Below, piece after piece: positions 8,752 through 27,386 of a stretch of 64,000 bases of DNA. Location: positions 32,001-96,000 of IMG/VR virus record IMGVR_UViG_3300030102_008089; one strand, given 5' to 3'. Every line of letters begins with the position of its first letter. The first letter of the stretch is position 1. The translations under genes and the position numbers were made by a program. The notes under the pieces were generated by a model. The model ran no database searches. It was not told the origin of the DNA and saw only the letters and a list, made by a program, of their open reading frames with translations. The stretch comes from a virus.

Positions 8752-10692
8752 ATGGCAAACAAAAAATCTGATCGTTTTCTCAAGTTAATTGGAAAACACA
8801 ACGAAAAGAAAAAGAAAGAAAAATTTAGTGGTTCTTTTGAGGATTATTTAAGGATCCTAGAGAATGACACAACTATTACAAAATTAGCCCACAAAAGACT
8901 ATACGATTCAATAGTTGAAAGTGGTATAACAAAATTGAGCCAAACAGATGAAAGATGCAACAAGCTTTTTGGTGGCGAAGAATTAAGAACCTATGATTAT
9001 TTCCAAGACAAGTTTTTTGGAATGGAAAGATCTTTAGCAAAGATTATGCGTTTCTTGCGGTCTGCATCGCTTAAGGGCGAAGAGAGCCGTCAGGTTCTTT
9101 TATTGTTGGGTCCTGTTGGTGCTGGCAAGTCTGCACTTATGGAGCACATCAAAAGATCACTAGAAGACTCAGAACCAATGTATCATCTTGATGGGTGCCC
9201 AATTAACGAGGAGCCACTACACCTAATTCCTAGATCACTAAGGTCCGACTTTGAAAAACTATACGGCATTAAAATTGAGGGTGATTTATGTCCTGTCTGT
9301 CGCTATAGATTGAAAGAAGAATTTAATAATGACTATTTAAAGTTTCCTGTAGCTCAGTCTTCTTTTTCTGTACGAGGACGCCGTGGTGTTGGAGTTGTTC
9401 CTCCAATGGATGCAAATAGTCAAGATGTGACTGTTTTAGTCGGCAGCGAAGACATTTCAAAACTTGACCTTTATTCTGAAGATGATCCAAGAGTTCTGTC
9501 TTTAAATGGTGCCTTTAATGTCGGCAATAGAGGTATAGTTGAATTTGTAGAAGTGTTTAAAAATGAGATTGAATTTTTGCACACGATGATTACCGCAACA
9601 CAGGAAAAAGCCGTACCATCACCAGGTAAAGGTCCAATGATTTATTTTGATGGGGTAATTTTAGCTCATTGTAACGAAGCTGAATGGAACAAGTTTAAAT
9701 CTGAAAACACAAACGAAGCTATCTTAGACAGAATTGTAAGAGTTAATGTTCCTTATTGTCTAGAAGTATCTGAGGAAGTTAAAATATATAACAAAATGTT
9801 GGGACTCTCTGACTTTGATGGACACATAGCGCCACACACTCTTGAGGTTGCTGCAATGTTTGCAGTGTTAAGTCGCCTGCACCCCTCTAATAAAGTTGAT
9901 GCTTTGACCAAGATGAAACTATATGATGGACAAGATGTTATAGAAAGAGGGTCTGTTAAAAAAATAGACATAAATGATCTTAGAGACGAAGCAAGAGACG
10001 AAGGGATGACAGGAATTTCAACCCGCTTCATAATGAAGGCTATTGATAGTGCCTTATCAGATAGTGAAAAAAATATGGTAACTCCAATTTCAATAAGGGA
10101 TTCATTAATAAAGCAAGTTAAGGATCAAATAGTTGTAGAAGATGATAGGAACAGGTACCTAGACTTTCTAGGAAAGACCTTGCACGATGAATATCTAAAC
10201 ATTCTTGAGAAAGAAATTACAAAAGCCTTTGTCTCTGCTTATGACGAACAGGCGGAGTCGCTTTTCAACAATTATCTTGACCACGCCGAAGCATATGTCA
10301 ATATGACAAATGTAAAAGACTCAGTAACTAACGAAGAGATAGCTCCCGATGAAAAATTTATGCTCTCTATTGAAGAACAAATAGGAATTACGGGTACAGC
10401 AAGAGAAAACTTTAGAGTTGACATAACAGCGTTTATGTTTTCTAAACTCAGAAGAGGTGAGACTGTAGACTGGAAATCATATGCCCCACTAAAAGAAGCT
10501 ATTGAGAGCAAGTTAACCTCTTCTGTTAAGCAAATTTCTAGAATTGTAACAAAATCTAAGAGCAGAGATAAGAAACAACAAGGAAAGTATAACGAAATGT
10601 TACAGACTCTGATTGATGAGTACGGATATAATGAGGAATCAGCAGAGGAAGTAATCAAGTTTGCCTCTAATAATCTCTGGAGAGACAGTTAG
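8752..10692 (+). CDS. prkA: PrkA/YeaG AAA+ protein
   Basis: LLLLGPVGAGKS Walker A, CPINEEPL, LCPVC, NRGIVEFVEVFK, GISTRF. Confidence 0.95.
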   Translation: MANKKSDRFLKLIGKHNEKKKKEKFSGSFEDYLRILENDTTITKLAHKRLYDSIVESGITKLSQTDERCNKLFGGEELRTYDYFQDKFFGMERSLAKIMRFLRSASLKGEESRQVLLLLGPVGAGKSALMEHIKRSLEDSEPMYHLDGCPINEEPLHLIPRSLRSDFEKLYGIKIEGDLCPVCRYRLKEEFNNDYLKFPVAQSSFSVRGRRGVGVVPPMDANSQDVTVLVGSEDISKLDLYSEDDPRVLSLNGAFNVGNRGIVEFVEVFKNEIEFLHTMITATQEKAVPSPGKGPMIYFDGVILAHCNEAEWNKFKSENTNEAILDRIVRVNVPYCLEVSEEVKIYNKMLGLSDFDGHIAPHTLEVAAMFAVLSRLHPSNKVDALTKMKLYDGQDVIERGSVKKIDINDLRDEARDEGMTGISTRFIMKAIDSALSDSEKNMVTPISIRDSLIKQVKDQIVVEDDRNRYLDFLGKTLHDEYLNILEKEITKAFVSAYDEQAESLFNNYLDHAEAYVNMTNVKDSVTNEEIAPDEKFMLSIEEQIGITGTARENFRVDITAFMFSKLRRGETVDWKSYAPLKEAIESKLTSSVKQISRIVTKSKSRDKKQQGKYNEMLQTLIDEYGYNEESAEEVIKFASNNLWRDS

Positions 10693-14550: not shown

Positions 14551-14625
14551 GCGGGTGTAACTCAGTGGTAGAGTGTCTCGTTGCCAACGAGAATGTCGTG
14601 GGTTCGAATCCCATCACCCGCTCCA
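14551..14625 (+). tRNA. tRNA-Gly(GCC)
   Basis: GCGGGTG/CACCCGC acceptor, TCTCG-TTGCCAA-CGAGA anticodon arm, GTTCGAATC, U73, encoded CCA. Confidence 0.97.
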
Positions 14626-14627
14626 AT

Positions 14628-14702
14628 AGGAACGTAGCTCAGTGGTAGAGCGTCTGGTTTACACCCAGGATGTCGTAGGTTCGATCCCTACCGTTCCTAC
14701 CA
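14628..14702 (+). tRNA. tRNA-Val(TAC)
   Basis: AGGAACG/CGTTCCT acceptor, loop TTTACAC, GTTCGATC, encoded CCA. Confidence 0.95.
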
Positions 14703-14707
14703 AATAT

Positions 14708-14784
<77 letters not shown>

Positions 14785-16461: not shown

Positions 16462-16538
16462 GGGGGATTAGCTCAATTGGTTAGAGCATCCGACTCATAA
16501 TCGGGAGGTTCAGAGTTCAAGTCTCTGGTCCCCTACCA
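16462..16538 (+). tRNA. tRNA(CAT), probably Ile2 (lysidine-modified)
   Basis: TCCGA-CTCATAA-TCGGG arm with C29:G41; lacks initiator features; A73; starts at the base after the tilS stop. Confidence 0.85.
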
Positions 16539-16539
16539 A

Positions 16540-16615
16540 GCCCGAATAGCTCAATTGGCAGAGCAGTGGTTTTGTAAACCAAAGGTTGCAGGTTCGATTC
16601 CTGCTTTGGGCACCA
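16540..16615 (+). tRNA. tRNA-Thr(TGT)
   Basis: GCCCGAA/TTTGGGC acceptor, loop TTTGTAA, encoded CCA. Confidence 0.95.
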
Positions 16616-16618
16616 TAA

Positions 16619-16693
<75 letters not shown>

Positions 16694-16694
16694 C

Positions 16695-16782
16695 GGAAGA
16701 GTGTCCGAGTGGTCGATGGTGAGGCACTAGAAATGCCTTGTGCAGAGATGCACCGTGGGTTCGAATCCCACCTCTTCCTCCA
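16695..16782 (+). tRNA. tRNA-Ser(AGA), class II, U73
   Basis: GGAAGAG/CTCTTCC acceptor, AGGCA-CTAGAAA-TGCCT arm, long variable arm GTGCA-GAGA-TGCAC, encoded CCA. Confidence 0.88.
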
Positions 16783-16808
16783 GCCTCGCCTTCGGGCGGG
16801 GCTTTTTT
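16783..16808 (+). terminator. Intrinsic terminator
   Basis: GCCTCGCC-TTCG-GGCGGGGC followed by T6. Confidence 0.9.
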
Positions 16809-16913
16809 ATTTATTTTTTTGAATATAGTTTATATATACGTCGTTATAGTGTTGCAACAAATTAGTTCCTCTATTGGTTGTTAGGTTATATTATCTCCAA
16901 CTGAGGAAAAATA

Positions 16914-27061: not shown

Positions 27062-27386
27062 GGGGGTAAACGGTATCGATTGATGGGAAAGTAGAAAAGG
27101 TGCAAGGGTGAGGGAAGCGTGGCTCACGAAAAACGCTTAAAACTTTAATCGCCAATGACGATTTCGAAATGGAGATGGCAGCTTAAAAACCTGACCTCCC
27201 ATGAGGCGACGGCAGCCGATAAACAGAAAGCCGTATTTGGGTGTCTTAAGTGCTTTTGATTGTTATAGCCGCAATAAAACGATCTAGTCAAGCGGGCTGT
27301 CTGACGATAAAAACAGACCTAACCTTGTGAATGACCCTTCTATGGAACTAGACAAGACGGGAGTTCGATTCTCCCTACCTCCACCA
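27062..27386 (+). ncRNA. ssrA: tmRNA, tag (A)ANDDFEMEMAA
   Basis: GGGGGTA/TACCTCC acceptor with G3:U70, A73, CCA; T-arm GGGAG-TTCGATT-CTCCC; tag frame 27151-27186 ending in Ala-Ala-stop. Confidence 0.95.

Follow-up and report, generated by a model that had tools for sequence, protein, structure and literature searches.

The tRNA genes that supplement the codon usage of large myoviruses lie in compact operons, as in the T4-type clusters or the cyanophage-like set Val(UAC)-Arg(UCU)-Gly(UCC)-Ser(GGA)-Thr(UGU), and match heavily used A/U-ending codons. We analyzed an operon of the same kind in a 64,000-nucleotide stretch of DNA from a large, uncultured marine phage (positions 32,001 to 96,000 of the IMG/VR record IMGVR_UViG_3300030102_008089; hereafter the window), which is part of a virus record of 127,433 bases with a CheckV completeness of 59%. 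Its last gene encodes a tRNA-Ser with the anticodon AGA, and hence with an adenosine at position 34 (A34). The described phage sets have a GGA anticodon, as do sister phages at the same slot, whereas the AGA of the window pairs with UCU by Watson–Crick pairing and is expected to read UCC poorly.

Several other described tRNAs resemble this one. The same anticodon in a bacterial class II tRNA-Ser body was obtained in Escherichia coli by the serX G34A mutation, and the resulting Ser-tRNA(AGA) is expressed, unmodified, and tolerated (Raval et al. 2026, 10.64898/2026.05.15.725136). That tRNA is a laboratory point mutant, whereas the one in the window is natural, conserved, and phage-borne, with a different body and a uridine discriminator (U73). 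The Leu(AAG) and Thr(AGU) tRNAs of lactic acid bacteria and Mollicutes likewise have A34 in a four-fold box and take the place of the G34 isoacceptor in an AT-rich setting with U-ending codons. However, they are chromosomal, serve other amino acids and, where tested (Streptococcus pyogenes and Oenococcus oeni), are edited to inosine (I34) by an adapted TadA (PMC11472039); we found no adapted deaminase in the phage records searched. The tRNA-Ser(UGA) genes of phages Merlin (KT001915) and Kaldavass (PQ464595) share with the window gene a GGAAG... stem, U73, the encoded CCA, and 96.7% identity over the 3′ 30 nt, but differ in the anticodon and in the rest of the body. Finally, eukaryotic tRNA-Ser(IGA) is produced by ADAT2/3 from genes with the same AGA anticodon. 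The window tRNA has a body of bacterial type, and neither bacteria nor this phage are known to possess an ADAT-like heterodimer, so that I34 is not expected.

In prokaryotes, A34 tRNAs are almost absent, which reviews and a 2026 preprint (10.64898/2026.05.15.725136) treat as an unsolved puzzle. In passages that cite a 2019 survey (PMC6409571), both that preprint and PMC8007984 state that phages lack A34 anticodons. Ser(aga) appears in PMC10264068 only among the anticodons rarely encoded by mycobacteriophages, and none of the papers retrieved in our literature search describes a tRNA-Ser(AGA) from a phage. The natural phage tRNA-Ser(AGA) reported here, conserved and recurrent in about 11 lineages, contradicts the stated absence of phage A34 tRNAs.

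An intact and conserved tRNA-Ser with A34

ARAGORN predicts a tRNA-Ser(aga), and the sequence fits the cloverleaf of the Rfam covariance model RF00005 with a score well above the gathering score of 29 (E = 1.7e-7; coordinates in table 1). The acceptor stem of 7 bp (GGAAGAG/CTCTTCC) gives the pairs G1:C72, G2:C71, and A3:U70. It is followed by a D stem of 3 bp, an anticodon stem of 5 bp (AGGCA/TGCCT) closed by the loop C-T-AGA-A-A, a variable arm at linear positions 46–59 made of a 5-bp stem and a 4-nt loop, whose pairing is maintained by compensatory changes, and a standard T arm (GTGGG-TTCGAAT-CCCAC). The gene thus shows the covariance-model fit, the long variable arm, and the G1:C72 and G2:C71 pairs of a bacterial-type class II tRNA-Ser, and departs from this type by U73 instead of G73. 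It is an intact, well-formed tRNA of this class with A34. The first-pass annotation, made from the letters of the window, had described the anticodon and its position, the 5-bp stem, the three acceptor pairs, the long variable arm, and the T discriminator, and every one of these details was correct. BLAST of the gene against E. coli genomes, used as an isotype check, returned no match.

Orthologous Ser(AGA) genes with 93–98% identity are present on eight other IMG/VR contigs. The nine contigs of this lineage represent seven distinct sequences, in which all 175 stem cells examined are paired. Double-sided, compensatory changes affect four pairs, two in the variable arm and two in the T stem, and no variation is seen in the acceptor stem, the anticodon arm, A34, or U73. 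This pattern suggests that the gene is under purifying selection. As A34 is invariant on nine contigs with paired stems, a sequencing error at 16729 is ruled out, and conservation together with the compensatory changes likewise rules out a pseudogene.

To estimate the distribution of such genes, we used a first search pattern consisting of the anticodon arm and a wider one combining a common Ser D-loop motif with the fixed loop CTAGAAA; all counts given below are lower bounds for the subset of Ser tRNAs with that D-loop and that anticodon loop. The wider pattern matched 41 IMG/VR stretches, of which 35 were tRNA-Ser(aga) according to ARAGORN. Other tRNA genes adjoin Ser(aga) in 31 of these 35 stretches, and none of the 35 also carries Ser(gga). 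They reduce to 26 distinct sequences falling into 11 clusters at 85% identity, with compensatory changes at 22 of the 25 base pairs across the 26 sequences. In cellular genomes (185,579 bacterial and archaeal species, each represented by a single genome; 596 Gb in total), the 14 matches included only five true tRNA genes. A34 is thus very rare in bacterial tRNA-Ser, in line with the first-pass statement that bacteria generally use A34 only in tRNA-Arg(ACG). Over the stretch from the D arm through the anticodon loop, two of these bacterial copies, in metagenome-assembled genomes of Dyadobacter (G014:C1:7240794-7241039) and Ca. Puniceispirillum (G013:C1:641317-2035803), differ from neighboring or co-resident GGA genes at position 34 only. 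At least two of the five bacterial AGA genes are therefore recent G34A paralogues coexisting with a G34 reader.

When any base was allowed at position 34, 167 of 301 Pseudomonadota genomes matched; no AGA was found among the approximately 200 pattern matches, and the tRNAs among the matches listed were UGA, GGA, or CGA. The G34 version of the pattern matched at least 120 viral stretches. Eighty of these were inspected: 35 have neighboring tRNAs, and 22 carry the tRNA alone at a contig end, where it is probably a host attachment-site tRNA. Measured against these 120 or more G34 stretches, AGA represents a sizeable minority of the phage-borne UCY readers with the body type of the pattern. By rough extrapolation, it represents about one in ten thousand of the cellular UCY readers of the same type. 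Relative to Ser(GGA), for which the viral count is at least 120, AGA would be on a rough estimate a thousand-fold commoner in viral contigs than in bacterial genomes. Among 50,697 cultured-phage records, BLAST with the window gene and two other AGA lineages gave no close AGA match: four of the matches inspected were Ser tRNAs with UGA and the fifth a Lys(ctt) tRNA.

The discriminator U73, which the first-pass annotation had counted as part of the A34 oddity, is unrelated to it. It is also present in the Ser(GGA) genes that occupy the same slot in sister phages. In addition, the 3′ 30 nt of the window tRNA, U73 and CCA included, have matches of 95–99% among the tRNA-Ser genes of cultured phages (46 records), and in both records inspected, those of the enterobacterial phages Merlin (Citrobacter) and Kaldavass (Erwinia), the gene is a Ser(UGA) with a GGAAG... 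stem and U73. The presence of U73 in sister Ser(GGA) and cultured-phage Ser(UGA) genes rules out U73 as a companion of A34 and indicates a lineage trait of phage tRNA-Ser. LeuRS and TyrRS prefer A73, so that U73, too, would exclude both enzymes. In E. coli, G73 is of moderate importance for serine identity, its main role being the exclusion of LeuRS and TyrRS; the variable arm is the main determinant for SerRS, independently of the anticodon, and G1:C72 and G2:C71 are found in most bacterial tRNA-Ser (PMC9976931).

Probable decoding of UCU and the state of A34

Codons were counted in open reading frames (ORFs) covering 84% of the 127-kb record. TCT is the commonest serine codon, with 796 of 2626 (30%, compared with 9% for TCC), in agreement with the first-pass impression that it is frequent. 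The other phage tRNAs also match abundant codons: ATA makes up 33% of Ile codons (CAT tRNA together with TilS), AGA 40% of Arg codons (Arg(TCT)), ACA 41% of Thr codons (Thr(TGT)), and GGA 34% of Gly codons (Gly(TCC)). Per gene, the ratio TCT/(TCT+TCC) rises with the use of AGA codons (Spearman rho 0.55, p = 5e-8), a correlation that partly tracks third-position GC content, and the few genes avoiding ATA and AGA mostly have lower TCT. The ORFs are open under table 11, and the UCN box is entirely serine under the standard bacterial code. A34 is therefore located in a four-fold box, in which extended wobble cannot miscode.

From these data we infer, with somewhat better than even confidence, a supplementary tRNA charged by SerRS, whose A34 is probably unmodified and reads UCU by Watson–Crick pairing; its expression, charging, modification state, and benefit to the phage are all part of this proposal. 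Ser(AGA) would be cotranscribed at the end of the operon tilS-tRNA(CAU)-Thr(UGU)-Gly(UCC)-Ser(AGA); host tRNA-processing enzymes would then free it, with its CCA already encoded. As SerRS recognizes the long variable arm and the acceptor stem and not the anticodon, the host enzyme could charge the tRNA with serine and would tolerate U73. A34 would most likely stay unmodified and read UCU through an A:U pair, with perhaps weak reading of the other UCN codons. UCU, the top serine codon, is highest in genes that also rely on the other phage tRNAs (for AGA, ACA, GGA, GUA, and, through TilS, AUA). Because Ser(AGA) would only supplement a host pool that still reads UCC, the phage may escape the presumed cost that keeps A34 out of cellular tRNA sets.

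Some observations weigh against this proposal. The TCT bias is equal in sister phages with AGA, with GGA, or without a Ser tRNA (TCT-over-TCC 0.66–0.89), so that codon usage does not require A34 and its advantage over G34 is hypothetical. With no difference found among sister phages, codon usage was rejected as the reason for holding AGA or GGA: it accounts for the family keeping a UCY reader, not for A34 in the branch of the window. Every AGA-bearing record is a fragment (22–59% complete), and a modifying enzyme may lie elsewhere in the genome. The distribution described above reflects a single Ser tRNA subset.

The alternative that survives best, although we regard it as unlikely, is the conversion of A34 to inosine by the host TadA or by an unseen phage enzyme, in which case the tRNA would read UCU, UCC, and UCA like eukaryotic tRNA-Ser(IGA). 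When a tRNA gene encodes A34, the base is usually converted to I34. The window gene does encode A34, and its loop CUAGAAA has C32, U33, A34, A37, and A38 in common with that of tRNA-Arg(ACG). TadA has a strict sequence specificity for the Arg(ACG) loop, which has been widened to Leu(AAG) in the Firmicutes S. pyogenes and O. oeni (PMC11472039), and an engineered Phe-tRNA(AAA) is apparently modified in E. coli (10.64898/2026.05.15.725136). However, the loop C-U-A-G-A-A-A departs from the U33-A34-C35-G36 read by TadA at both positions 35 and 36, and the Ser-tRNA(AGA) encoded by the chromosomal serX G34A allele of E. coli is expressed and enters the mature pool with A34 unmodified (10.64898/2026.05.15.725136). 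Searches for the deaminase folds PF00383 and PF14437 were empty for the whole 127-kb record, five AGA-bearing relatives, and a complete 190-kb relative devoid of Ser tRNA. This extends to the whole record the first-pass remark that the window shows no deaminase, and speaks against the phage-encoded broader TadA that the same annotation had considered. The sole deaminase of the family is a 142-aa dCMP-deaminase-type ORF, without NCBIfam match, in a GGA-bearing relative that is 98% complete. The empty searches, the strictness of TadA, and the unmodified Ser-tRNA(AGA) of E. coli lead us to consider an unmodified A34 as clearly more probable than I34. Of the three options raised in the first pass, decoding by unmodified A34 fits best, given that the E. 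coli tRNA is both unmodified and functional (10.64898/2026.05.15.725136).

It is a little less probable still that A34 is effectively neutral, i.e. that it is equivalent to G34 in a host supplying tRNA-Ser(GGA/UGA) and persists by drift and recombination. In E. coli, the ANN tRNAs tested are able to replace their native counterparts, and A34 tRNAs of four-fold boxes are mostly neutral or beneficial (10.64898/2026.05.15.725136). The shared codon usage of AGA, GGA, and Ser-less sister phages, and the lack of any Ser tRNA in some close relatives, point in the same direction. Yet A34 is invariant over the nine contigs of the window lineage, and about 11 phage lineages have retained it despite their deep divergence and the compensatory turnover of their stems. 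Drift should give mixtures of A and G within lineages; none was seen, in searches whose pattern required A34 and so would miss G34 members of the other lineages.

The serine slot in sister phages

Phages whose PrkA serine kinase is about 87% identical to that of the window have a syntenic tRNA array in which the last position is variable (table 1). Sister phages with a different Ser slot share the upstream members of this sub-array (the CAT, Thr, and Gly tRNAs) at 92–100% identity. In L184, for instance, the other four tRNAs are 92–99% identical to those of the window, and the Ser tRNA only 72%. A simple G34A mutation of the GGA gene of the neighbors was rejected as the origin of Ser(AGA), the syntenic GGA genes being only 72–77% identical to it compared with 92–100% for the other tRNAs of the array. 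In the PrkA tree, the three AGA holders do not form one group, and L186 joins the Ser-less L187 and L238 with a support of 96/96. The mosaic of Ser slots among similar arrays and the scattering of AGA holders on this tree suggest that the Ser position behaves as an exchangeable cassette.

In the Ser-less sisters, different protein genes directly follow Gly(TCC) (L238:17497-17720 and L188:17757-17980), and the one in L238 looks like an adenine phosphoribosyltransferase gene. These differences mark the end of the tRNA operon as a site of frequent gene exchange.

More tentatively, ANN tRNAs may constitute a recurrent virus-specific translation strategy, and in the family of this marine phage the Ser slot may act as a swappable cassette with alleles (AGA/U73, GGA/U73, GGA/G73, or empty) sorted by the host. 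Since phage tRNAs merely add to those of the host, phages could use a Watson–Crick reader of U-ending codons that cells select against. This suggests the rule that A34 is tolerated when it supplements, and does not replace, a G34 reader; the bacterial AGA copies found beside GGA copies fit this rule. Sister phages that differ mainly in whether a single slot holds AGA, GGA, or no Ser tRNA provide natural test material for the A34 puzzle, and phage annotation pipelines and codon-usage models should keep ANN tRNAs and not drop them as artefacts.

The same mosaic could be read, improbably in our opinion, as host-dependent diversifying selection on the Ser slot, for example by tRNA-targeting defense nucleases, with AGA/U73 as one escape allele unrelated to codon matching: near-identical arrays do carry AGA/U73, GGA/U73, GGA/G73, or no Ser tRNA, the holders of AGA do not form a clade, and phage tRNAs counter anticodon nucleases (PMC10264068, PMC11555353), but the described VapC cut in Ser tRNAs is at G35-A36, which AGA retains, Ser(aga) is itself among the listed targets (PMC10264068), and the nuclease evasion proposed in the first pass finds no direct support. 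No defense or counter-defense gene is linked to the Ser slot, and the downstream region is a general site of gene exchange. We know of no nuclease specific for G34 of tRNA-Ser.

The tRNA operon and other phage tRNAs

ARAGORN predicts seven tRNAs and one transfer-messenger RNA (tmRNA) in the window, and all eight are confirmed by Rfam. The sub-array that ends with Ser(AGA) has the order tilS, tRNA(CAT), Thr(TGT), Gly(TCC), Ser(AGA). The TilS ORF directly abuts the CAT tRNA, ending one base before it, and this position of tilS directly 5′ of the gene makes the CAT tRNA a probable tRNA-Ile2, for AUA. A hairpin and T run comparable to those following Ser(AGA) are found 3′ of the orthologous Ser tRNAs in L186, L220, and most GGA-bearing sister phages.

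Table 1. Features of the window and states of the Ser slot in sister phages
Feature	Position or contigs	Strand	Evidence or remark
tRNA-Ser(AGA)	16695..16782	+	ARAGORN; Rfam tRNA, 49.1 bits; compensatory changes across 8 other contigs
Anticodon AGA	16729-16731; A34 = 16729	+	Direct sequence reading; ARAGORN
Discriminator U73 (T)	16779	+	Direct sequence reading
Encoded CCA	16780-16782	+	Direct sequence reading
First sub-array: tRNA-Gly(GCC), Val(TAC), Arg(TCT)	14551..14784	+	ARAGORN and Rfam
Minimal TilS (tRNA-Ile lysidine synthetase, N-terminal domain), 201 aa	15856..16461	+	PF01171, 1.8e-32; TIGR02432, 116 bits (cut-off 93.6)
tRNA(CAT), probably tRNA-Ile2	16462-16538	+	ARAGORN
tRNA-Thr(TGT)	16540-16615	+	ARAGORN
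tRNA-Gly(TCC)	16619-16693	+	ARAGORN
Intrinsic terminator-like hairpin (9 pairs, 7 G-C) and T run	16782..16813	+	Closes the tRNA operon
PrkA serine kinase gene	8752-10692		About 6 kb upstream of Ser(AGA)
Slot state Ser(AGA)/U73	L186, L220		
Slot state Ser(GGA)/U73	L185, L189, L191, L192, L193		Stem GGAAGGA
Slot state Ser(GGA)/G73	L184		
Slot state without Ser tRNA	L187, L188, L190, L238		Protein gene directly 3′ of Gly(TCC)

IMG/VR contains 158 relatives of PrkA, and thousands are present in metagenomes, which include Tara samples. Relatives with 87–96% identity occur in very many marine metagenome contigs, including Tara, which suggests that the phage family is abundant in the sea. One of the PrkA relatives is a 190.5-kb contig rated 100% complete, which has no Ser tRNA. 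With only about 31% identity to proteins of Microcystis and Flavobacterium phages, the baseplate protein gives no host assignment.

The tmRNA of the phage family is located at 27062-27386 in the window and is also present in L210, L225-L231, L235, L241, L248, L252, L254, L255, L257, L259, and L260. Its tag peptide is very variable: ANDDFEMEMAA in the window, and ANDDFETYALAA, ANDDFDIYAIAA, ANDNVEYDYALAA, and ANNNYHFESVRLAA in other members of the family.

Other A34 tRNAs were predicted by ARAGORN in viral contigs. tRNA-Thr(agt) is recurrent in phage arrays (L004:7547-7622, L008:3511-3584, L021:9031-9106, and L039:4134-4207; also L081, L087, L105, L109, and L122). Single cases are Ile(aat) (L035:4246-4322), Pro(agg) (L073), and Ala(agc) (L189, a sister phage, near 9190). 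A tRNA-Cys(aca) occurs in large phage arrays (L023:2263-2336, L027:7893-7962, L032:8870-8943, and L036:6601-6674); here A34 is in a two-fold box, and extended wobble would reach UGA and UGG. Finally, tRNAs with a CTA anticodon, labeled Pyl by ARAGORN, share arrays with Ser(aga). They are about 90 nt long in L006, L027, L032, L035, L036, and L041, and 76 nt long in L008 and L021; the 90-nt forms are class II and look like amber suppressors.
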